From sequence record MT129652.1: 64,000 nt of DNA. One strand, 5' to 3'. The translations under genes and the position numbers were made by a program. The stretch is from Escherichia phage MN01. The notes beneath the pieces were generated by a model. That model ran no database searches, had not been told where the DNA came from, and saw nothing but the letters and a program-made list of their open reading frames with translations. Shown here in pieces: positions 3,214 to 63,992 of the stretch (its first letter is position 1; the number at the start of each line of letters is the position of its first letter).

Positions 3214-3231
3214 ATGTTTTCCTCTTTACTG

Positions 3232-3239
3232 TATTTATA
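3232..3239 (-). promoter_or_regulatory. T4-type late promoter (TATAAATA on minus strand) for gene 13
   Basis: exact TATAAATA octamer about 20-28 nt upstream of the gene 13 ATG, immediately downstream of the wac terminator. Confidence 0.5.
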
Positions 3240-3241
3240 CG

Positions 3242-3262
3242 AAAAAAGGGCCGAAGCCCTTT
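3242..3262 (-). terminator. rho-independent terminator after wac
   Basis: GGGC-CGAA-GCCC hairpin flanked by A6/T5 runs directly after the wac stop. Confidence 0.6.
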
Positions 3263-3265
3263 TTG

Positions 3266-5635
3266 TTATGGTGCTGGATTTAATGTCACGAATGTTGACA
3301 AAAGAACCCATGCATTATCAACGAGAACATACGGGAGACCATCATCCGCAGGAGCGACAGGAGGCCTTTTGGAGAGCTCTGTTTCTAAGGCTGATACTTT
3401 ACCTTCCAACGTAGTTATCTTCGTCTCGGCTGCAGTCAGGCGACCAGGAAGAGGAGTTACTGTACCTTCAAGAGTTGTCACACGAGTAGTTAACGGTGCA
3501 ATTTTTGCAGTATCCAATTTAATTGCAGTAATTTCATCTTCAACTGTTGCAACTCTTTCGTCTAGCGGTGCAATTTTTGCGGTATCGAGTTTAATCGTAG
3601 TGATTTCTCCTTCACTTGATGTAACTCTTTCGTCTAGCGGTGCAATTTTTGCAGTATCCAATTTAATTGCGGTAATTTCATCTTCAACTGTTGCAATTTT
3701 TGCAGTATCCAATTTAATCGCAGTGATTTCATCTTCAACTGTTGCAACACGCGTAGTTAATGGAGCAATTTTTGCAGTATCCAATTTAATTGCGGTAATT
3801 TCATTTTCACTTGATGTGACACGCGTAGTTAATGGAGCAATTTTTGCAGTATCCAATTTAATCGCAGTGATTTCTCCTTCCGCCGAAGTCATTCGACCGG
3901 TCAAGGTTACCAAACCACCTTTGTTTGTTTCGATATTTGCTTTAATGGTAACCAGCTCGCCCTCAACATTGCTAACGTCTAAAGCCAAAGCAGTGACATC
4001 ATCATCAGTCGCCGCTGTTTTGGTTTCCAGTGCGGTTATTTTACCGTCAACAGTCGTATCCTTCGTTTCTAATGCAGTGAGTCGACCATCTTGTTCTGTA
4101 TCTTTATTTTGCAGAGCAAGAACATCTGCCTTAACACCGGTGACGGAAGTATTCAGTGCACCATAACGAGTATCTAATGAACTAATTGCCGTATCATTAT
4201 CATCAACACGACCTGTTAATGTTGTTACGCGTCCATCGGTTGTTGCCAATGAAGCTTTAACCGCGTCAACTTCAGTTTTGGAATCGATAATTTCAGCCCA
4301 AGTTCCTTGCTTGCGGCCATATAACTTATTATCTAGTGGTGCGTCGTTCAGCTTGGACGCCATCATCATATCCAAGTTAATTACAACCGGGAGAACACCA
4401 CGTTCAGCCACAGTAGCACCGTTAGGGTTGGTTCCGTTCATCTGACTAGTTAAAGTCAAAATAGAGCCTTTCATACCGGTGGTATTTGTACCGATTTCGG
4501 CCTGTACATCCTGAAGACCCGATGCAGTTTCGTTAGCCAGCGTAGTGGTTGCATTCAACTTATACGTGATAGTGTTTGGCTCCGGAGATTGCTCTGTACC
4601 GATTCTCTGAGAAAGCCATGCAGTGGTTCCGCGTAAACCAGAGCTTGAATCCTGACCAACAACAACCTGTAAGCCATTAACATCCGTCCGCAAAGCACCA
4701 ATTCGACCATTAATTGTCAATGGCTCCAGCGCTGTTCCAATATCGGTTTCAACCTTCGTGAGTCTTGGTTTGATATCAGCAATATCTGTTTCATTGGCTA
4801 AAACACGTCCACCAAGATTTTCAACGCGGGTTGTAATTGCAATCCCTGTACCAAAACCAATAGCTTCTTGAATGTTGACAATATCTTCGTCAATTTCAAC
4901 TGCTTTATCATCAAGAGTATTCAGTCGAACAAATACAGCCGGTTTATCTGTTGCTAAAGTAGACTCACCTAATTCTTCACGAATTTTAATTACTTTTACG
5001 TTAAGAGAACCAACATCAGAATCATGATAGTTATCTTCAAGAGTCTTAATACGAACTCCATGCGCAACAATAGCCGAACTGTTATCGATGATGCGGCGTT
5101 TCATGCCTTTTGACGGATTTCCAATAACCTGAAGACCATTTATATCTTGGTCAACATACTGACCTAATTCATTTTTAATCCATACGAGGTCATTACGAAC
5201 TGTACGATAATATGAATCGGTTAACGGGTCATAAGCACCAACATCTTCCTTTAACTTTTTAAGACCTTCGGATGTTTCGCTTGATAGTAATTCGGTATTA
5301 AATTGACGTTCATCAAGGTCAAGAATATCCGTACGGTTTTTTTCAATTTGTTTAACAACTTCCGTGTTAGTTGTTATATCCAAAGCTTCCTGAATATTAT
5401 TGACGTTATCAATAATTTCGTTGATTTTTTCTTTAGATGCATTTGAGTTGTCGTCGAGTGTATCTACGTTTGTTTGAACGCCAACTGCAGCGGCGTTCAA
5501 ATTACCATCATGACCATATTTGGTACTGGCCGCAGTCATACAATCGCCGTTTTGTATCCAACGAATTCTCTGTTGACCTTCGTCTGGAATACCGATGCTA
5601 TACGGCAGTTCTTTGAGACTGAGTTTATTAATCAT
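3266..5635 (-). CDS. wac: fibritin (whisker/collar protein), expanded coiled-coil
   Basis: N-terminus LPYSIGIPDEGQQRIRWIQNG matches T4 fibritin N-domain; C-terminal foldon-like LPYVLVDNAWVLLSTF; about 790 aa versus 487 in T4; start set at the Met following the gene 12 stop with an AGGA Shine-Dalgarno. Confidence 0.88.
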   Translation of the reverse strand: MINKLSLKELPYSIGIPDEGQQRIRWIQNGDCMTAASTKYGHDGNLNAAAVGVQTNVDTLDDNSNASKEKINEIIDNVNNIQEALDITTNTEVVKQIEKNRTDILDLDERQFNTELLSSETSEGLKKLKEDVGAYDPLTDSYYRTVRNDLVWIKNELGQYVDQDINGLQVIGNPSKGMKRRIIDNSSAIVAHGVRIKTLEDNYHDSDVGSLNVKVIKIREELGESTLATDKPAVFVRLNTLDDKAVEIDEDIVNIQEAIGFGTGIAITTRVENLGGRVLANETDIADIKPRLTKVETDIGTALEPLTINGRIGALRTDVNGLQVVVGQDSSSGLRGTTAWLSQRIGTEQSPEPNTITYKLNATTTLANETASGLQDVQAEIGTNTTGMKGSILTLTSQMNGTNPNGATVAERGVLPVVINLDMMMASKLNDAPLDNKLYGRKQGTWAEIIDSKTEVDAVKASLATTDGRVTTLTGRVDDNDTAISSLDTRYGALNTSVTGVKADVLALQNKDTEQDGRLTALETKDTTVDGKITALETKTAATDDDVTALALDVSNVEGELVTIKANIETNKGGLVTLTGRMTSAEGEITAIKLDTAKIAPLTTRVTSSENEITAIKLDTAKIAPLTTRVATVEDEITAIKLDTAKIATVEDEITAIKLDTAKIAPLDERVTSSEGEITTIKLDTAKIAPLDERVATVEDEITAIKLDTAKIAPLTTRVTTLEGTVTPLPGRLTAAETKITTLEGKVSALETELSKRPPVAPADDGLPYVLVDNAWVLLSTFVTLNPAP
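3470..3880 (-). repeat. tandem 72-bp (24-aa) coding repeat array inside wac
   Basis: six near-identical units EITAIKLDTAKIAPLTTRV(T/A)xx (one truncated to 17 aa) visible in both the protein and the nucleotide sequence. Confidence 0.85.
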
Positions 5636-11608: not shown

Positions 11609-14600
11609 TTACCTTTACCTGTGTAGGGTCTTTCGGGTCGCGTGGATTACCAATATCATCCTTAAGACGTTGATTAACCAAATTGCGCCAGTTAGCAAAA
11701 GTCACGGCAGACTGGTCAAACAATGGACTGTATTTTTTACGACGTTCAGACGGGAGAGTCCCATGAAAATCTGAAAAATCGTTTTCGGCATCATAATCTG
11801 CTGGTAATGGGAATGGTAAACCTGCATTAGGAGCAATATTATATACTGCTTCACCTGTAACAGGACTATGCTCAATGTTTCCATCGGCCCCAATAACTGC
11901 GATACGGTCACACCATTCTGACGGAATACCCGACGACCAACGATAGTTGTTCAGTTTATTGATAATGGTTTCTGTATGTTTTAATGACAGACCAGCATTA
12001 ACAAACATTGTCAATAATGTAATTCCAACGAATCCAAATCCAACCGGATGAACAAATCGCAATACGTCATTACGATAACGAGATGTTGGGAGACTTGATT
12101 TAATGGTCATTACATAGTAAGAACGATTTCGGTTGATATAATCGATGTTGTTGCTAAGTAATTCTTTCCCACGAACACCCTGAACAATCATGCCTTCAAA
12201 GGAAGTCCTTTCGGATTTAATTTCTTGCCCAACAATAAAGCGACCAAGTAAGTTATGAATCGTGATACGCCATCTCAATTTACCCTGTTTATAGTCACGT
12301 TCCATATAAGTAACGTTACTGCGACCAGTTGGTGTGTAAATTGTTTGTCCAACAATATCTTCGCTGATGTTATCAGATTCGACGATTATGTCATACTCGG
12401 TTCCGTTCTTGGATTCAATATCGATTTCAACGTCTTCATTATATAACAATTTGAACAAAAACTTATAGGATGCTTCAGTCCCCTTAGTTGCCCAAAAATC
12501 AGACTGTCTTGCTTCAAAGAAACGAACTACTTCGTCACGCTTGGTCTTTGACAAATATATGTTTCTTTTGTACATTTCGCTCCAAAGGTATTCCCATGCA
12601 TCTTCCTCGCGTGGGTACTGGTTGCGAATTAAGTTCAAAAGGTTGTTATAATATGTGCCAGAGCCATCACTGATAAACTGCAAATAATATTCACAGAATT
12701 TTTCAAAGTTGCTATCCTGGAGCAAATAACTATCCGGAACCATCTTTGTTAAAAGAGGACGCAAGTCTGGGTCTTTCTCTTGTTCGTCATTATCTGGGGT
12801 CCATGGAATATCATGTTCCTGGTTCTGTAATTCTGCAGTAAACATAACTTCTTTCGGTTTCCAGATTAATCTAACTTCATCACGCATACGATAGTCAAAT
12901 TCAAAATAACCAATAAGCTCTCCAGTATTTTTGTGTAACATAATACCCGAGGCGTATTTTTTAAATCCATTGAATTCGATGTTAGGAGAAGTAACTTTTA
13001 CTTGACCTTTATTCCAGTATTCGTGTACAATACGTTCAGGGGATGAACCACCAAAGGTATCGATAATCTTTTGATACAGCATGTCATTATATACAACCAG
13101 AGCTCTGTCTGATGTGGTAATCCAACAACGAGTATCATCACGACGAGACCAGTTAAAGAACGGTTCAGCATAATATGACATACGTCCAGGTTTAAACTCT
13201 TCCCAACCTGAATCTTTATTCGACCTAAAACTCATCATCAAATAATGCTTGTCGTGTATCCATTGTTCATCATACACATATTTGACTGCTTCGTTAACTT
13301 CTTCAGGATACTTAATGGGGAGTTCGGTATCTGGTTCAACGGAATAACGGAAATTACTTGAACTGATAAAAAGTTCAATTCCATCAGTTGACATGCTTGT
13401 GTAGCCATGTTCAATACGACGGCGTTCATCCTCTGTATTGCCAAAAACTCGTGTCCATGTATCAGTATCGGTATTTAATTTATAAACGCCCTTTGATAAT
13501 GAATCAATAACGTTTTCGGGTTTAGTCGGGTCTTGGCGTTCTTCCTTTACTTCACCCGTGATTAATGCAAACACTTCACCGTCAATTGAATCCATCTTAT
13601 AACAAACAGCTTTTGGGTTACCACTTATTGTGCTATATCCAGCTTCAAATAATTTTTCACCAAACGTTGGGGAGTTAGGGTCATTATCAATTGGAGCATC
13701 CGAAGATTTAGCTTTGTACACGCGGTCACGGCCGGCAACGTAAATCATGGAATCGGTGGTAGTAATTGCTTCGGCAATTGTCGAGATATATGCCGGGAGT
13801 CTTGCGTATGTGCCAAATATTTCAATATCAAATCCGAGATTGATATCCGAACCAATTTTTGCAAATGTTATATCTTGAGAACTGAATCGAACATCATCAG
13901 CAGACCATCTTATGTCACTTGATTTGCGGCCGTAAAAAATTCGGTCATATCCGAGTACGTAAGTTGTCGTATCTGATTGATAATAAATTGTGCGCGATAC
14001 CGGGTTACCGATACGGTCATTAAACAATTTTACATAATACCAGTTCTGCCCTTTATCATTGGAGACTTTGACAGTTGTCTGGAATCGTTCAAACAAATAC
14101 AGTACGCCACCAAGTTCAGCAATCATTGTACGATTAACATCATTACACACCGGCTGAATACTACCCTGAATTTCGTGATATTGGTCTTCTTTTAATACAT
14201 AGTTTGAAATTGAAGACAAATGAGAATAAGCAGGAGTAAAGCTAAAATCTTCAGACATCAGCGATGCCATAATTGCATCATTATTAAAGTTGATATAAGC
14301 CTGGTTATTGTTTGTGAATTTTTCTTCGATGAATTTATTTGTTAATGTAAATTCACGCATGTGCTCAAATGTGTATGCGTTAGTTGCAAAGGTTTCAAAT
14401 TCTTCGGTATAAACCCAATCAGATTGTTCAAAACCCATTGCTGCAACAGCAACACGCATTTTGTAAAATGATACTGGACGAATAAAATCTTGTTCGAACC
14501 ATTCATTGTCTGGAGTATAACCTAAATTCCTCCATAAAAGATTTTCTTCTGGAATAGCAACACCATTTTCTTTTGTCGTAGCAATCTCAACAAAATAATA

Positions 14601-19849: not shown

Positions 19850-19861
19850 AAAGCCTCCATT

Positions 19862-19870
19862 TATAAATAA
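19862..19870 (+). promoter_or_regulatory. T4-type late promoter (TATAAATA) for gene 4, in the divergent 53/4 intergenic region
   Basis: exact TATAAATA about 28 nt upstream of the gene 4 ATG; an AATAAATA variant on the opposite strand faces gene 53. Confidence 0.5.
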
Positions 19871-19897
19871 GTATATCAATATTTATTAGGAGGCTAT

Positions 19898-35816: not shown

Positions 35817-36049
35817 GTATTGCAATTTATATTAAATCCGAGTCATGTGATTCTTATCTGTATTCCTATGACACTGGAACACCAGAAGAGAAAATCAAAG
35901 ATGATTTAGAAACTGATTTAGATATGTTCCGCCCGATTTCTGAATACAGAATTCAAACTTCTGATAGTGAATCTCCTTCATTGGAAAACAGACTTGAATT
36001 TTTAATGAGTGATATTTTTAACCAATCATGGAAACGTGACGATGAGTAA
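35813..36049 (+). CDS. small acidic protein, hypothetical
   Basis: 78 aa ORF translationally coupled to the upstream gene. Confidence 0.45.
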   Translation: MSIAIYIKSESCDSYLYSYDTGTPEEKIKDDLETDLDMFRPISEYRIQTSDSESPSLENRLEFLMSDIFNQSWKRDDE

Positions 36050-36500
36050 GAAAAACAAGGTGAAAGAATTATCTGCTGGCATTATTTTCATGACTGAAGA
36101 TAAAGAGTTATTCATGGGTCGTGTGACTGGTTCTCGTAAACCAGGTATGCCTGCACACAAATGGGACATCCCTAAAGGTCATGTTGAAGCTGGTGAATCC
36201 CCGATTGAAGCGGCTATCCGTGAAACCGAAGAAGAAACCGGGTTTACTCAATACGACCCGGCATTCTTAAAGGACCTGGGCGAATTCCGTTATTCAGATA
36301 ACAAAAATCTTCACCTGTTTTTGTACACGGTTCCGGTCGAGCATGAGCAGTTCAGACATAGTAAATGCTCTGCCTATCATACCTTCCCGGATGGTAGTTC
36401 GATTCCAGAGTTCGATGCATTTGCTCTGATTAAACCAAGTCAATGGCAGTATGTGATGGGCAAATCGATGTACAAGGTACTGACTCAAATTTTCGGATAA
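36042..36500 (+). CDS. nudE: Nudix hydrolase (T4 NudE / e.1-like)
   Basis: Nudix box GHVEAGESPIEAAIRETEEETGF; immediately upstream of lysozyme e as in T4. Confidence 0.85.
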   Translation: MSKKNKVKELSAGIIFMTEDKELFMGRVTGSRKPGMPAHKWDIPKGHVEAGESPIEAAIRETEEETGFTQYDPAFLKDLGEFRYSDNKNLHLFLYTVPVEHEQFRHSKCSAYHTFPDGSSIPEFDAFALIKPSQWQYVMGKSMYKVLTQIFG

Positions 36501-36505
36501 TAAAT

Positions 36506-36523
36506 ACCCCTATATAAGGGGGT
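36506..36523 (+). promoter_or_regulatory. hairpin sequestering the gene e Shine-Dalgarno, with late-promoter-like AATAAATA just upstream
   Basis: ACCCCT-atata-AGGGGGT with the AGGGGG Shine-Dalgarno in the 3-prime arm, 4 nt before the e ATG. Confidence 0.5.
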
Positions 36524-36526
36524 ATT

Positions 36527-37018
36527 ATGAATATATTCGAAATGTTACGCATAGATGAAGGTTGTAAGTTGGATTTGTATAAAGATACTGAAGGCTATTG
36601 GACCATTGGTATCGGGCAACTGATAACTAAGAACCCATCAAAAGATGTTGCTCGTGCCGAGCTCGACAAACTCATGGGTCGCGTCTGTAATGGTCGCATA
36701 ACCCAGCACGAAGCTGAAACATTGTTTAACCGTTCGGTCGAAAAAGCTAAAGCCGGAATCTTGAGACACCCTGTCTTAAAACCTGTTTATGATGTGCTAG
36801 ATGAAGTTCGTCGTTGTGCACTCATTAATATGGTATTCCAGATGGGTGTTGCTGGTGTTGCTGGTTTTCCTAAGGGTATGCGACTTCTGAAGTCTAAATC
36901 ATGGGAAGCAGCTGCTAAGGAACTGGCGGACTCAAGATGGTATAAAGTCCAGACTCCGAACCGAGCCAAACGAGTTATAGAAACGTTCCGTACTGGAACT
37001 TTTAGCGCATACAAATAA
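36527..37018 (+). CDS. e: endolysin (T4 lysozyme e)
   Basis: 163 aa; [23 protein letters not shown] nearly identical to the T4 lysozyme N-terminus including catalytic E11/D20 context. Confidence 0.95.
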
Positions 37019-37026
37019 GGTAAAAT

Positions 37027-37329
37027 ATGAAAACGTATAAAGAATTTATCACCGAAGCGCGCGTAAGTGCAGGTAAATTAGAAGCCGCTGTAAATAAAAA
37101 GGCCCATTCATTTCATGATTTACCAGATAAAGACCGTAAGAAACTTGTAAGCCTTTATATTGACAAAGAGCGTATTCTAGCTCTCCCTGGCGCTAACGAA
37201 GGTAAACAGGCCAAGCCTTTGAATTCTGTCGAAAAGAAAATTGATAACTTTGCTTCTAAGTTCGGCATGTCTATGGATGACCTTCAGCAAGCGGCTATCG
37301 AAGCAGCTAAAGCAATTAAAGGTAAATAA
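37027..37329 (+). CDS. ipII: internal protein II-like (CTS-bearing)
   Basis: 100 aa; [40 protein letters not shown] matches remembered T4 IPII. Confidence 0.75.
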
Positions 37330-37360
37330 CAGTTTACTTCCACGATACGTGTGATATAAT

Positions 37361-37384
37361 GTTCTCCTACAAACATAGGAGAAC
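37361..37384 (+). promoter_or_regulatory. early promoter plus 9-bp hairpin sequestering the denV Shine-Dalgarno
   Basis: GTTTAC, 17 nt spacer, TATAAT at about 37333-37360, then GTTCTCCTA-caaaca-TAGGAGAAC hairpin whose 3-prime arm is the AGGAGAA Shine-Dalgarno. Confidence 0.45.
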
Positions 37385-37388
37385 AAAC

Positions 37389-37805
37389 ATGACTCGCATT
37401 AATTTGACCCTGGTATCTGAACTTGCTGACCAACATCTTATGGCCGAATATCGTGAACTTCCTCGCGTGTTTGGCGCTGTTCGTAAGCATGTGCAAAATG
37501 GTAAAAAGGTTTCTGACTTTAAAATCCCATCATCTTTTCTTTTAGGGACTGGTCATGTCACCTTCTTTTATGATAAGCTTTTGTTCCTTAAAAACCGACA
37601 TCAAGAACTTATTGCGGAATGTTTAAAGCGAGGGTTTAACATAAAAGATATTTCTACCCAAGACTTAACTGATATTCCTGATGAATGGAAGAATGATTAT
37701 CAACCATCAATCTGGTCAATTGAAATCAGTCAAGCTAGGCTGAATGAGAAAATTTCTCAAAAGCCCGCTTGGTACAAATACTATGGGAAAGCTGTGTACG
37801 CTTAA
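37389..37805 (+). CDS. denV: endonuclease V, pyrimidine dimer DNA glycosylase (T4 DenV)
   Basis: [34 protein letters not shown] matches T4 DenV; start moved to this Met. Confidence 0.92.
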
Positions 37806-37853
37806 CTACAAAGGTTGTATAATGATTTTATCAACCAAACAATGGAATATAAA

Positions 37854-38153
37854 ATGAAAACTTATCAAGAATTTATTACTGAAGCCAAAGCTCCTAAAGC
37901 ATTTCAAATTGGGGTTCAGGGTAATTTAGACCAACAATATGTTGATGCTATTGTAGCAAGCCTCGGTAAACAGGGTGTACAAGTGGATTTGGTTGATTTT
38001 ACTAAAGGTAATACTTTTAATATTGTTACATCTAAAGGTTCTTTAGCTAAAGTTAAAAAGGCCTTTGGTGTAGCACAAGCATACGAAATCGACCATTCTG
38101 AATTAGAAAATAAAGGTCGCCAGAACACAATTAAAGGTTCTGGTTCTTTCTAA
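37854..38153 (+). CDS. internal-protein-like protein (CTS-bearing; ipIII position)
   Basis: start moved to MKTYQEFITEAKAPKAFQ. Confidence 0.6.
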   Translation: MKTYQEFITEAKAPKAFQIGVQGNLDQQYVDAIVASLGKQGVQVDLVDFTKGNTFNIVTSKGSLAKVKKAFGVAQAYEIDHSELENKGRQNTIKGSGSF

Positions 38154-38313
38154 TAAAGGCAAGCCGGCCCTCTCCTCATGAACGTCGCGTCCTCTGAGTG
38201 ATGGACCTTTCCCTACCTGTAATAAGGTCGAGCCCAAGTGCGGTAAAGGGTTTACATACGGATACATGGATGAATTATGTGCCAAGGAACGGCCCCACAA
38301 TTAAGAGACAACT

Positions 38314-38841
38314 ATGAAATTTTTAACTCCAATTTATCTAACCTTAATGCACGCCTTCGCTGAACGCGCCATTGAACGCTTAGATTCAGACCAATACGCC
38401 TGGTATGAACCCGCTTCAAGAATGCAAGAGTTTGGTACTCTTAGACTTGATGGTGGAAGACAAACGGGTAAAACAAGTGCCATTGCGCAGTTTGCTGCGG
38501 ATTGGGTTTCTAAGGGTAATGATGTGATTGTTATGTCAAGTTCTTCGCATCGCTCACGAGAAATCTGTGATATAATAAAGCGGGTTTCTAAGGCACAGCC
38601 GCATCTTAATGTTGAACGACCTGGTTTTGTTGTATATGATACTGTTCGTTCATTTTTAGATGAAGATCATTTTCACAAGTATCGTGGACTGTCTGTTACC
38701 CGATTATTGATTATTATTGAAGAGCCTATTCGTCTCCCAGCGATGGATAAGTTCTATGAAGCTTATCAGACAATGATGAATAAATTTATGCGTCAGGGTT
38801 CTAAACCTCTGCCACTGTTCTTTGTGGTAGGAATGCAATGA
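38314..38841 (+). CDS. P-loop NTPase-like protein, hypothetical
   Basis: Walker A-like GGRQTGKTS; hydrophobic beta-strand LLIIIEEP consistent with Walker B. Confidence 0.5.
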   Translation: MKFLTPIYLTLMHAFAERAIERLDSDQYAWYEPASRMQEFGTLRLDGGRQTGKTSAIAQFAADWVSKGNDVIVMSSSSHRSREICDIIKRVSKAQPHLNVERPGFVVYDTVRSFLDEDHFHKYRGLSVTRLLIIIEEPIRLPAMDKFYEAYQTMMNKFMRQGSKPLPLFFVVGMQ

Positions 38842-50919: not shown

Positions 50920-51912
50920 ATGACGCGTAACGAATATATCCAGGCCTTTAATACCACTATTGATGCAAAAGTAAAACCATTAATAGGTGAATCGGCTATC
51001 CTTTTAATTATCAATTACTGGTTAAATCAGATTGACTCGACGATTGTTGCATCCGGTCGCTTCAAGAAAGACATTGCGACTATTGCGAGTCGTGCCGGTA
51101 AAGATGATATCAAGAAAACTTTTAAAGGTTCCCGAGTCCTGGCATACCTAGTTAATAAAGACCTTCTTAATAAGTTTGGTGTTGAATCCAGACGTGGTAA
51201 AGGTACAATTGGATATCATTGGTTTGGTGATGTTGAAAAATACTACCTTGATAATCAAGGCTATACTGTTTCTGAATTCGCAAATTGCTGGGCTCGTGAA
51301 TTCAGAGATAACAAAATGTCTATCATCAAATCAGCGACAAAATTGATGGGTGGCGATTATCGCACTATCTCCCATTTGGCTGAGCACATGATAAAGGTTA
51401 AAGAGTCTGGTGCAAACCAGGTAATTATTACAGCTAAGTATGGATTCTTTACGCCAGTGGCTACCCCAGAAAATGTCAAAAAGTATTTTGATGCTGCAAG
51501 TACGCTTACTTCACAGATGCAGTGTGCCCTTAATTATATGCGTACTGTTGAAAAAATTAAAGTAGACCCTATCACCAGTACTCATGGTTGGAAAGGTTGG
51601 AAAATTGTGGTGACATTACGCGAAGTTAAATGTGCAAAGCAACCAACTGTTGCAGAAATCCATAAAAAGAAAAATGAGGAAATTATGAACGCTCCGCATG
51701 AAGTTACCACCCTTGAAGACCTGATTGATAATCTGAATAATGAGCCAGTGAAACAAAAAGCGCCTGAAATTGTTGCCCTGGAAACAGCGTATAATGAAGC
51801 TCTTGCTGTTAATAAAAAAGCAACTGAAGACTATACAAAAGCCAAGCGACTTTGGGAAGAATCAACCAATCGTCTGGATAAACTGGAACAGGCCCTGGAG
51901 CTGCTGAAATGA
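50920..51912 (+). CDS. hypothetical protein with C-terminal coiled coil
   Basis: 330 aa; GAGGAGAA Shine-Dalgarno; promoter cassette upstream. Confidence 0.5.
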   Translation: MTRNEYIQAFNTTIDAKVKPLIGESAILLIINYWLNQIDSTIVASGRFKKDIATIASRAGKDDIKKTFKGSRVLAYLVNKDLLNKFGVESRRGKGTIGYHWFGDVEKYYLDNQGYTVSEFANCWAREFRDNKMSIIKSATKLMGGDYRTISHLAEHMIKVKESGANQVIITAKYGFFTPVATPENVKKYFDAASTLTSQMQCALNYMRTVEKIKVDPITSTHGWKGWKIVVTLREVKCAKQPTVAEIHKKKNEEIMNAPHEVTTLEDLIDNLNNEPVKQKAPEIVALETAYNEALAVNKKATEDYTKAKRLWEESTNRLDKLEQALELLK

Positions 51913-54491: not shown

Positions 54492-54590
54492 TATGGATGC
54501 TCTTATTACGGTATTTTGGGTCGGAGTTGTTTTATTCGGATTGTTGTTAGTGCTAAGTTGCACTGCTAAACTATTAGGATATTAATAAAT

Positions 54591-54615
54591 ACCCTTATCT
54601 AATAATGGTAAGGGT
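54591..54615 (+). promoter_or_regulatory. hairpin sequestering the gene 49 Shine-Dalgarno, with late-promoter-like AATAAATA upstream
   Basis: ACCCTTA-loop-TAAGGGT with AAGGG Shine-Dalgarno in the 3-prime arm 6 nt before the ATG; same GGATA(T)TAATAAATACCC context as gene e. Confidence 0.5.
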
Positions 54616-54620
54616 TTATT

Positions 54621-55094
54621 ATGTTGTTGACTGGCAAATTATACAAAGAAGAAAAACAAAAACTTTATGATGCACAAGCTGGTAAGTGTCCAATTTGCCA
54701 CCGTGATTTGGACTCTGATGTTCAGGCCAACCATCTTGACCATGACCACGAATTGAACGGGCCAAAAGCCGGTAAGGTTCGCGGGTTACTATGCAATCTG
54801 TGCAATGGAACAGAAGGGCAAATGAAGCATAAGTTCAGCCGTTCGGGTCTGAAAGGTCGTGATGTTGACTACCTGGAATGGTTAGAGAGTTTGCTTGTCT
54901 ATCTGAAATCTGATTATACCGAAAACAATATTCACCCTAATTTTGTGACAGACAAAGCTAAAGAGTTCGGTCGCCTGGGGAAAGAAGAAATGATTCAGGA
55001 AATGCTTTTGAACGGCATGACTTATAATGAATCTGATACGAAGCCTAAACTACAAGCTTCATTTAAAAAACAACTGAGGAAATCGCTTAAATGA
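54621..55094 (+). CDS. 49: endonuclease VII, Holliday junction resolvase (T4 gp49)
   Basis: 157 aa; MLLTGKLYKEEKQK..DHDHELNGPKAGKVRGLLCNLCN nearly identical to T4 endonuclease VII. Confidence 0.95.
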   Translation: MLLTGKLYKEEKQKLYDAQAGKCPICHRDLDSDVQANHLDHDHELNGPKAGKVRGLLCNLCNGTEGQMKHKFSRSGLKGRDVDYLEWLESLLVYLKSDYTENNIHPNFVTDKAKEFGRLGKEEMIQEMLLNGMTYNESDTKPKLQASFKKQLRKSLK

Positions 55095-58072: not shown

Positions 58073-58338
58073 TGCACATCAATCATACAATGATATCCAT
58101 CCAGGACCTGGGAACGTTTTGTGTGGATGAATTCATGAAAATAACATTCTTCCCGCATGCAGAAGGATATGGCTCTTGGGAGTCTCATATCGGCATGTTG
58201 AATGAAGGACAATACCGCAACGAGCATGACCGTCTGATGGAATTCATTAGTGATGCCGAGGTTATTCCTTATATTGACATTCATGAATTTAAGGCAATTA
58301 TGGAGAAGGTCTTTCAGGCTTACTGTTTACTTCGCTAA
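58072..58338 (+). CDS. hypothetical protein
   Basis: 88 aa ORF. Confidence 0.45.
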   Translation: MHINHTMISIQDLGTFCVDEFMKITFFPHAEGYGSWESHIGMLNEGQYRNEHDRLMEFISDAEVIPYIDIHEFKAIMEKVFQAYCLLR

Positions 58339-58386
58339 TGCTTTGTATCAAGGATGATATAATATTCATATACTAAGTGAGGCGAT

Positions 58387-58944
58387 ATGAACGAAATTAA
58401 ATTAACTAAGAATAACTATGTAAATAATAAAGAGCTTTTGAAAGCTATTTCGGAGTGGAAACAGAAGCTGAATGCGAACACCGACCCGAATAAAATTATT
58501 CGCCAGAACGATGTTATTGGTCTGGCAATTATGCTTATAGCCGAAGGTCTTAGCAAACGTTTCAACTTCTCCGGATATACCCAATCTTGGAAGCAAGAAA
58601 TGATTGCAGACGGAATTGAGGCCGCAATAAAAGGTCTTCACAACTTCGACGAAACAAAATACGATAATCCACATGCTTACATAACAATGGCTTGCTTCAA
58701 TGCTTTCGTTCAGCGTATCAAAAAAGAACGTAAAGAAATGGCAAAGAAATATAGCTACTTCGTCCATAACGTGTATGATTCACGTGACGACGATATGGTG
58801 GCTCTGGCTGATGAAACATTTATCCAGGACATCTATGACAAAATGACACAGTACGAATCCTCTTTAGTTAAAGCGCCAGGGTCTGATAAGAGCGCCAAAG
58901 ATAAAGAAGGTGATTTGGATTTTTTATATGGAACATCAATTTGA
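58387..58944 (+). CDS. 55: late-transcription sigma factor (T4 gp55)
   Basis: 185 aa; [65 protein letters not shown] matches T4 gp55. Confidence 0.93.
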
Positions 58945-63270: not shown

Positions 63271-63290
63271 GCCTCTTATTGAGGCTTCAT
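63271..63290 (+). terminator. terminator hairpin after gene 46
   Basis: GCCTC-ttatt-GAGGC then T-rich tract; the hairpin overlaps the stop of the convergent HNH gene. Confidence 0.5.
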
Positions 63291-63992
63291 TTTGCAGTTA
63301 TCAAAATGCCAACGTTTCATATTAGCTGGCATACCGACTACATTACAGTGTGGACACTGAATTTTGGGGTCCACCTTTTTCTTCCGGTTTGGATTGGATT
63401 TGCAGAATTGTTGGTGAGTGGATATAACACACTTTTTACCTTCAAGCCCGCAAAATTCACAATTTAAAATTTCATGTTTAGCTTGTTTTAAACCTACTGA
63501 AATTTTTTGCTTTTGCTTTTCCGGAATAGTATGAACAACCTTGTTTGGACCTTTGGAACAGTTATCAAAATGCCAACGATTCATATTGCCAGCGAGACCG
63601 GTTTTTCCACAGTGTGGACATTCGACTCTCGGTTTTAATTTGGCGGATTCTGACATTTTCTTTCTGGTTTCATCGGAGAAAATTTTATTTTGTTGAGCTT
63701 CCAAGTTTTTACGACGAAGCCATCCAAATAATTTGTTTTTGCTTCTGTCGGCATTTGGTGCAGAAACTGTCATCATGCGCGCGGCATAGACCAAAGAAGC
63801 GTTATTTGGATGCATTTTGACCAACAGTTGATGGCAAACGAAATGTTCCTCGGGAGTTAAATCAACAAGATTTGAAGCGTCGTCAGCCCCACCCATACAA
63901 CGGGGTATAATGTGATGGCTTTCAGAGTATGTGGTTAATTTGCGATTCAATGCTCTGCTAATAAGCTTTTGGTAAATGATGTTATAATTCAT
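63276..63992 (-). CDS. HNH homing endonuclease-like protein with duplicated zinc-finger modules
   Basis: HNH motif HHIIPRCMGGADDASNLVDLTPEEH; repeated CPHC....NM.RWHFDNC modules; opposite strand to all flanking genes. Confidence 0.7.
   Translation of the reverse strand: MNYNIIYQKLISRALNRKLTTYSESHHIIPRCMGGADDASNLVDLTPEEHFVCHQLLVKMHPNNASLVYAARMMTVSAPNADRSKNKLFGWLRRKNLEAQQNKIFSDETRKKMSESAKLKPRVECPHCGKTGLAGNMNRWHFDNCSKGPNKVVHTIPEKQKQKISVGLKQAKHEILNCEFCGLEGKKCVISTHQQFCKSNPNRKKKVDPKIQCPHCNVVGMPANMKRWHFDNCKMKPQ
63276..63992 (-). mobile_element. putative free-standing homing endonuclease insertion between genes 46 and 45
   Basis: antisense HNH gene in an otherwise unidirectional block, at a site where I do not recall a homing endonuclease in T4. 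Confidence 0.45.

Follow-up and report, generated by a model that had tools for sequence, protein, structure and literature searches.

Introduction

How are individual genes regulated in dense phage genomes that contain few terminators? Three genes of Escherichia phage MN01 raise this question: e, which encodes lysozyme, gene 49, which encodes endonuclease VII, and denV, which encodes an early repair nuclease. The original prediction held that the Shine-Dalgarno (SD) sequence before each of them lies in the 3' arm of a stable hairpin, and that a promoter is placed so that transcripts started locally lose the 5' arm. We analyze the folding, promoter geometry, and conservation of these leaders in the window, by which we mean the whole 64,000-nucleotide stretch of record MT129652.1 that was studied, and in related phages. 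Our main reading, to which we assign a probability of about 0.7, is that each of these elements masks translation in a manner that depends on promoter position.

Masks of this kind are familiar from phage T4. Inhibitory structures are established for T4 e, soc, 49, and I-TevI (Uzan and Miller 2010, PMC3014915 section 29), and repression of the long transcript together with mapped short 5' ends has been published for these four T4 genes only (PMC3014915). The T4 e leader hairpin with its embedded late promoters is credited to McPheeters et al. 1986 (via PMC3014915 section 29, Fig. 5), and the T4 gene 49 hairpin with its late promoter to Barth et al. 1988 (via PMC2988022 and PMC3014915). Phages related to T4 have already been shown with an e leader hairpin and late promoter (Uzan and Miller 2010, PMC3014915). 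The leaders of soc, I-TevI, I-TevII, I-TevIII, segB, and Aeh1 mobE follow the same logic: only RNA from a distal promoter carries the 5' arm, and an embedded promoter frees the SD. All described cases of a hairpin at the ribosome-binding site are late genes with late promoters (PMC2988022 section 12).

The denV leader differs from the soc, I-Tev, segB, and mobE cases: the gene is early, the promoter is of the sigma-70 type, and the temporal polarity is reversed. No description of a hairpin at the denV ribosome-binding site was found in the searchable literature, and a denV hairpin switch run by an early promoter appears to be undescribed. Valerie and co-workers are said to have noted, in 1986, that stem-loops could form ahead of ipIII, ipII, denV, and orf61.9; in that case the structure at T4 denV had been noticed before, but was read differently. 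The e and 49 parts of our analysis merely confirm that textbook T4 control is retained in this phage. The denV part, if true, extends that control from late proteins that must not be made from early read-through mRNA to the opposite case, an early DNA-repair nuclease that is not made from abundant late mRNA.

Genomic context

The window belongs to a T4-like phage of the Tevenvirinae. Across 2 kb, it matches the Escherichia phages PSD2001, P896, and CJ20 at approximately 96% identity; SP18 and VR7 are also close. Its + strand is equivalent to the T4 minus strand, and all features described here lie on that + strand. The gene nudE ends at 36500 and is followed by e (36527-37018, ATG at 36527), an ipII-like internal protein gene (37027-37329; phrog_7857, internal virion protein), and denV (37389-37805, ATG at 37389). 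Gene 49 (phrog_423) occupies 54621-55094, with its ATG at 54621. No Rfam families are found at the e, 49, and denV sites, and no promoter features are annotated for this region in GenBank T4 records.

The position of denV would expose it to the transcription of its neighbors. The e late promoter lies approximately 850 nt upstream of denV, and in the interval from e to denV a scan of the window found nothing terminator-like on the + strand. With that promoter upstream and no + strand terminator in between, late transcripts of e and the ip gene, as well as early read-through, should carry the denV frame. The gene immediately before denV is an ip gene or e, encoded on the same strand, in every locus of the Tevenvirinae type, and the stop codon of this upstream gene abuts the denV -35 element. 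The ip genes upstream of denV vary among relatives.

Hairpins at the three ribosome-binding sites

RNA folding placed the SD in the 3' arm of a stable hairpin before e, 49, and denV, each at its predicted position, and the promoter geometry was correct at all three genes: given the predicted +1, local transcripts would lose the 5' arm. These parts of the original prediction were supported, and so was its extension to denV, while the identical sequence context and the reused module that it also proposed did not. Every +1 given here was derived from spacing rules and is a predicted position. Transcripts modelled from these predicted starts lose the hairpin, and the folding energy changes from about -22 to -25 kcal/mol to about -3 kcal/mol.

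Masking of this degree is rare in the window. We computed the SD unpaired probability in a read-through context (-75 to +6) for 82 heuristically called + strand starts, and the median was 0.39. Only three of these starts fell below 0.01, namely denV, 49, and gene 4; gene e lies outside the set of 82 owing to SD scoring. The e, 49, and denV hairpins are extreme outliers among the approximately 82 gene starts of the window. The apparent mask of gene 4 was rejected as a switch, as it is just an inverted repeat formed by the SDs of the divergent genes 53 and 4. Gene 4 shows that by-product hairpins exist, and for this reason covariation matters at denV. We also rejected the idea that SD masking is general to genes with early promoters: the 13 genes of this kind and the other 70 window genes have medians of 0.39 and 0.39 (Mann-Whitney p = 0.49). 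denV is the lone extreme among the 13, and the other twelve have no SD mask.

Genes e and 49

Before e, the late-promoter-like motif AATAAATA occupies 36499-36506, with a predicted late +1 at ~36512, just past the 5' arm of the hairpin. The hairpin extends from 36503 to 36526 (5' arm 36503-36511, loop 36512-36517, 3' arm 36518-36526); it comprises 9 bp and folds at -12 to -13 kcal/mol, with z = -3.4 for its 76-nt context. The SD, AAGGGGG at 36516-36522, is assigned to the 3' arm, and its unpaired probability in read-through RNA is 0.18 because of a bulged G. Across relatives, ATAAATAC is invariant and holds a constant register to the hairpin, both in an alignment of 18 e leaders from Tevenvirinae and in a set of 24 distinct leaders; the base before the late-promoter core varies between T, A, and G. 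The T4 e leader (TTTTATAAATACCTTCTATAAATACTTAGGAGGTATTATG) is orthologous to that of the window in gene and position: ATAAATAC runs directly into the anti-SD 5' arm, the 3' arm carries the SD, and the ATG stands 1-4 nt past the stem. The two leaders differ in promoter count, with one AATAAATA in the window and two TATAAATA in T4. They also differ in the bases that pair with the SD: GGGGG pairs with CCCC(U) in the window, and GGAGG pairs with CCUUC in T4, which is a compensated change.

Before gene 49, AATAAATA occupies 54584-54591, with a predicted late +1 at ~54597; the predicted late RNA keeps 3 nt of the hairpin 5' arm. The hairpin (54583-54621) is composed of a lower stem, 54583-54588 with 54616-54621, and an upper stem, 54591-54599 with 54607-54615, and folds at -14.1 kcal/mol (z = -2.5). 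The SD, AAGGG at 54610-54614, is inside the 3' arm and has an unpaired probability of 0.001. A hairpin is seen at this site in 47/47 related loci, where the stem sequences are many and different, and ATAAATA is kept in 21/22 aligned gene 49 leaders. The T4 sequence (AATAATAAATACCCTTATCTATTTAAGGTAAGGGTTTATTATG) is nearly identical to that of the window and itself uses AATAAATA; the stretch AATAAATACCCTTATC...GGTAAGGGTTTATTATG is near-identical in the two phages, and the difference is confined to the loop. Codon 53 of the gene also differs. In T4 it is GTG, an internal start that yields a short gp49 from the masked early RNA; in the window it is GTT, so the nested short gp49 would probably not be made from that codon in this phage.

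The T4 late motif usually lies at -13 to -6 relative to +1. The degenerate motif WATAAATA occurs 13 times in the window versus 13.5 expected; this is its chance frequency, and so only its placement is informative. AATAAATA departs from the late consensus TATAAATA at the first base. In Tevenvirinae e and 49 leaders from IMG/VR, ATAAATA stands in a fixed register to the hairpin and is preceded by T, A, G, or C. Stems in these relatives were judged from per-sequence folds, and they fall into compensating families: AGTTCA/TGAACT, GGTTCA/TGAACC, CGTTCA/TGAACG, GATTCA/TGAATC, ACCCTTA/TAAGGGT, CACTTATC/GGTAAGTG, and CCTCTATA/TATAGAGG. RNAalifold, run on the leaders of denV type A (see below), 49, and e as aligned by MAFFT, returned a consensus that was absent or trivial because loop-length differences shift the arms out of register. 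A late promoter embedded so that late RNA would lack the 5' arm was found, by motif, at e and 49 only. As judged by orthology, the e and 49 elements are the counterparts of proven T4 late-promoter/hairpin switches, and are already known. The claim that the temporal switch is established for T4 e and 49 agrees with PMC3014915 section 29, PMC2988022 section 12, and the T4 sequences.

Do e and 49 share a copied module? The original prediction described an identical GGATA(T) context before the two genes and suggested a reused regulatory module. The contexts read GGATA-ATAAATACCC before e and GGATATTAATAAATACCC before 49, with a 3-nt indel between them; GGATA is absent in close relatives of 49, and the GGATAA before e is the final nudE codon plus its stop. 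The part common to e and 49 is ATAAATACC(C), that is, a late-promoter core followed by the complement of a GGG-type SD. The 9-mer ATAAATACC occurs twice in the window versus 0.94 expected, and 31% of shuffles contain it at least twice. In addition, neither stems nor loops nor SDs are the same, and the denV element has an unrelated sequence and belongs to another promoter class. A shared e/49 module was rejected on the grounds of a 9-mer near chance, the 3-nt indel, and the lack of conservation of GGATA. Common constraints, or convergence, have led the three elements to one design; they are not copies or products of duplication.

The denV leader

The predicted GTTTAC..TATAAT early promoter before denV was found at 37332-37360. 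It is a sigma-70 promoter of the T4 early type: the -35 element GTTTAC occupies 37332-37337, followed by a 17-nt spacer and the extended -10 element TGaTATAAT, 37352-37360. With 10/12 matches plus the TG, it is the best sigma-70-like site in 35900-38400. The predicted +1 is at ~37367-37369, approximately 7 nt past the -10; by the same spacing rule, the T4 counterpart is the A of ATCAACTAC.

The denV hairpin occupies 37360-37385 (5' arm 37360-37369, loop 37370-37375, 3' arm 37376-37385). Its 5' arm begins at the final base of the -10, and most of it precedes the predicted +1. The hairpin has 10 bp, folds at -13 to -14 kcal/mol, and has a z of -4.4. The SD, AGGAG at 37377-37381, is within the 3' arm and has an unpaired probability of 0.001; shuffled versions of the upstream sequence have a median SD accessibility of 0.39, and 0/100 are as low as 0.001. 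The predicted local RNA retains 3 nt of the 5' arm, and its modelled SD accessibility is only ~0.3 because of weak alternative pairings. No ATAAATA is present near denV in the window. The denV element does not have an embedded late promoter: it would function like the switch family, and is no member of it in the strict late-promoter sense.

Conservation of denV masking

We collected denV loci from IMG/VR, together with T4, and obtained 33 distinct upstream sequences of the Tevenvirinae type. The SD unpaired probability is at most 0.02 in 28 of these 33 sequences, T4 included, which are non-independent samples; shuffled upstream sequences of the relatives give medians of 0.12-0.50. Weaker masks are seen at three loci with a value of 0.10 and at one locus with a value of 0.40. 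In the denV homologues of jumbo phages, the SD is unmasked. GTTTAC, or a near variant, and a -10 element precede denV in all Tevenvirinae-type loci.

Masking at denV uses two architectures, and in both of them the 5' arm lies mostly upstream of the predicted +1. In type A, found in T4 and others, the anti-SD CUCC is in the spacer between -35 and -10, right behind the -35. The helix is long-range, as in T4 CTCCTGTAG with CTACAGGAG. Its loop of ~30-40 nt holds the -10 and, around it, an inner stem-loop on which the SD helix is stacked. In type B, found in the window and others, the 5' arm consists of the end of the -10 (up to its last 4 nt) and the next ~6 nt. The 3' end of ipII and CAGTTTAC are common to T4 and the window, yet their denV architectures differ. 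Since the same flanks hold different architectures, masking, and not a particular sequence, appears to be conserved at denV, as far as can be read from these leaders.

Both architectures show compensatory change. In a type B alignment of 13 relatives, 95.2% of cells are paired versus 84.3 +/- 1.8 in shuffled alignments (0/500), and pairing drops to 41-62% when the partner is slid. Double changes occur at 5/10 pairs, two of them within the -10 hexamer, and A-to-G changes in the -10 are compensated beside the ATG. Several of the pairs are G-U, which argues for sense-strand RNA. The type A alignment was anchored on CTCC and GGAG in place of RNAalifold. It gives 87.1% paired versus 70.1 +/- 2.9 in shuffled alignments (0/500), with double changes at 7/11 pairs, for example CCTCCAAG/CTTGGAGG, CTCCGTTTG/CAAACGGAG, and CTCCTGTG/CACAGGAG. 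Within these alignments, the covariation proves selection for the denV helix, not for translational masking as such. The masked sequences (28/33) and the compensatory changes together provide strong comparative support for the claim that the hairpin switch extends to denV.

Alternative explanations

If selection has kept the denV helix, what has it been kept for? The nearest alternative comes from the promoter-early stem-loop (PeSL) cassettes of T4-type phages (PMC2839356, PMC4122927), whose layout the leader fits. In either case, a stem-loop lies in or overlaps a strong sigma-70-like promoter, the 3' end carries the SD and ATG, and the whole is found in a variable inter-ORF region; both adjoin highly variable genes, which at denV are the ip genes, and insulation of the downstream gene from upstream transcription has been proposed. 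The denV stem-loop could then be an element of the PeSL type that attenuates or terminates transcription of e and ip, or protects the 3' ends of their mRNAs. Insulation would act at the level of RNA synthesis or stability, and pairing of the SD would be incidental. Stem-loops between -35 and -10, or overlapping the -10, were described in T4-type sigma-70 cassettes by Arbiol et al. 2010 (PMC2839356), and one of them cut downstream lacZ about as much as a strong terminator (PMC2839356). The stacking of the type A SD helix on a stem-loop near the -10 fits this layout as well.

We nevertheless consider a PeSL-type role unlikely, and the difference lies at the 3' arm. PeSL stem-loops are described as standing apart from the SD and are read as terminators or attenuators, whereas the 3' arm at denV is the SD itself, constant in both architectures, and its pairing is conserved through two geometries. 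In none of the relatives is the denV hairpin followed by a U-tract, the flanks being A-rich (AACAAACATG, ATTAAAAATG), and a type A loop of this length is not terminator-like. The absence of SD masks at the twelve other early-promoter genes of the window also speaks against incidental pairing.

A second possibility concerns mRNA decay. Early SDs are cleaved at GGAG by the endonuclease RegB, which secondary structure inhibits. In T4, the denV SD resists RegB in vivo (PMC1702504), and GGAGAACAAAC in the window matches the RegB consensus GGAGRAYARAA. A hairpin whose main role on long transcripts is to shield the GGAG in the SD from endonucleases such as RegB, or to tune mRNA stability, and not to time translation, is improbable. 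The RegB resistance of T4 denV was traced to the bases on the 3' side of GGAG, and the site became cleavable in vivo once an A-rich tail was grafted on (PMC1702504); a masked SD would be untranslatable regardless of RegB. Moreover, the translatable local denV mRNA would lack the hairpin, which makes protection from RegB an unlikely function.

Finally, it is very improbable that the hairpins are by-products of sequence constraint (palindromic promoter cassettes, or AT-rich late promoters beside purine-rich SDs) with no regulatory role here: gene 4 provides a precedent, WATAAATA is at chance frequency, and the 49 hairpin, a stem followed by TTATTATGTT, is flagged as terminator-like and may be an intrinsic terminator, but denV shows compensatory changes, 49 and e have many stem families, their T4 orthologues are experimentally established (PMC3014915), and all three genes stand far outside the background. 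Neither the e nor the denV hairpin was flagged as a + strand terminator.

Proposed mechanism

We return to promoter-position-dependent masking. From the structures, their exceptionality, the promoter geometry, and the conserved pairing, we infer a translational effect. RNA started upstream would hold both arms, the SD being the 3' arm; with the SD buried in this manner, 30S subunits would be unable to bind such RNA. Transcripts from a promoter in or just before the 5' arm would be free of this arm and open to translation.

The consequences would depend on the class of the embedded promoter. At e and 49, which sit in an early-transcribed region, a T4 late promoter with an ATAAATA core would restrict translation to late times, by the mechanism proven for the T4 orthologues. 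At denV, the embedded promoter is a predicted strong sigma-70 early promoter, and the 5' arm would be formed on or just after the -10 in this phage and in the spacer in T4. DenV would be translated only from its own early transcripts, and would stay silent on read-through RNA from e and the ip genes, abundant late RNA included. Thus, as read from the leaders, the hairpin most likely confines DenV translation to transcripts of its own early promoter. The biological rationale may be that the mask insulates DenV dosage and confines DenV to the early period, with a temporal polarity that is the reverse of that at e and 49. In T4 omics data, denV has early RNA and early protein, and e, ipII, and ipIII have early RNA and late protein (PMC9697503 supplements).

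Implications and other masked genes

If the proposal is true, promoter bases and the flanks of a ribosome site co-evolve to preserve an RNA helix; in type B, bases of the -10 would covary with bases adjoining the start codon. The design is also of interest to synthetic biology, as it offers compact parts that tie translation to the promoter from which an RNA originates. The denV proposal can be tested cheaply in T4 itself.

The same metric provides a view of T4. Among 99 annotated T4 genes, seven have values at or below 0.001: the known cases I-TevII, e, and 49, plus denV, motB.2, modB, and gene 55. The mask of T4 motB.2 is type A-like and that of T4 modB is type B-like; the relatives of these two genes have near-identical sequences. 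At gene 55 of the window, a mask like that of T4 gene 55 is not apparent. We tentatively propose, at somewhat less than even odds, that denV is an early-gene hairpin switch conserved through two interchangeable architectures, and that it may belong to a small, unrecognised class of insulators, acting at the level of translation, that includes T4 modB and motB.2. Such a class would serve early genes located downstream of heavily transcribed late genes.

A separate observation in the window is the weak, type-B-like mask of a 330-aa gene at 50920, for which relatives provide 3 close loci.

Early promoters and cassettes in T4

Sequestration of the Shine-Dalgarno (SD) on read-through RNA is also computed at early promoters of two other T4 genes, modB (L206, a T4 sequence, 13130-13205) and motB.2 (L206 8161-8236), which between them repeat both architectures seen at denV: the 5' arm of modB begins within the -10, and motB.2 carries its anti-SD in the spacer, 3' of GTTTAC. 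The relatives of modB and motB.2 that were retrieved are near-identical sequences. A different arrangement is found 5' of each of the T4 internal-protein genes ipII and ipIII (L002, also from T4, 3225-3300 and 3935-3995, minus strand): a GTTTAC early-promoter cassette whose stem-loop of 9-13 bp, GAATTGTGA...TCACAATTC, surrounds the -10 and leaves the SD outside. In L019, a denV locus other than the window, this cassette stands before denV, and promoter cassettes are therefore mosaic around the ip genes.

Middle and late genes

In T4 gene 55 (L206 40157-40232), the SD is paired with CCTCT immediately 5' of a MotA-box/TATAAT middle promoter, and its unpaired probability is 0.001; an equivalent mask is not evident at window gene 55 (ATG 58387; 58310-58389 examined). 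The window carries an inverted repeat, AGCCTCC...GGAGGCT (19852-19895), whose arms are the SDs of the divergent late genes 53 (minus strand) and 4 (plus strand, ATG 19898). Within it lie TATAAATA on the plus strand (19862-19869) and AATAAATA on the minus strand (19880-19887). The gene 4 SD, with an unpaired probability of 0.001, is scored as masked, and no plus-strand gene lies upstream; the symmetry of the divergent late promoters probably produces this mask as a by-product. TATAAATA also occurs at 23607-23614 (within 23600-23626), just 9 nt 5' of the start codon (ATG 23624) of a gene for an internal head protein. A small hairpin around it pairs the SD of that gene (unpaired probability 0.044), and the predicted late +1, at about 23620, would be downstream of the SD.

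Differences from T4 in denV and gene 49

Measured against the published consensus for RegB/S1, GGAGRAYARAA, the denV SD context of the window (37378-37388), GGAGAACAAAC, is a better fit than that of T4, GGAGAACACUA, where position 9 is a C. The T4 denV SD is RegB-resistant (PMC1702504); because of the better consensus fit, denV mRNA of the window phage may be RegB-sensitive. In gene 49, T4 makes a nested short endonuclease VII from an internal GTG at codon 53 (T4 46699, L201), whereas the window has GTT (54777-54779), and the window phage probably does not make the nested product from this codon.

Other features of the window

Just past gene 46, on the opposite (minus) strand, a 238-aa ORF (63276-63992) with HNH-endonuclease-like motifs (HHIIPRCMGG, repeated CPHC...RWHFDNC) is likely a free-standing homing endonuclease. 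Two adjacent tRNA genes lie at 26241-26390 (Rfam RF00005, 62 and 74 bits).
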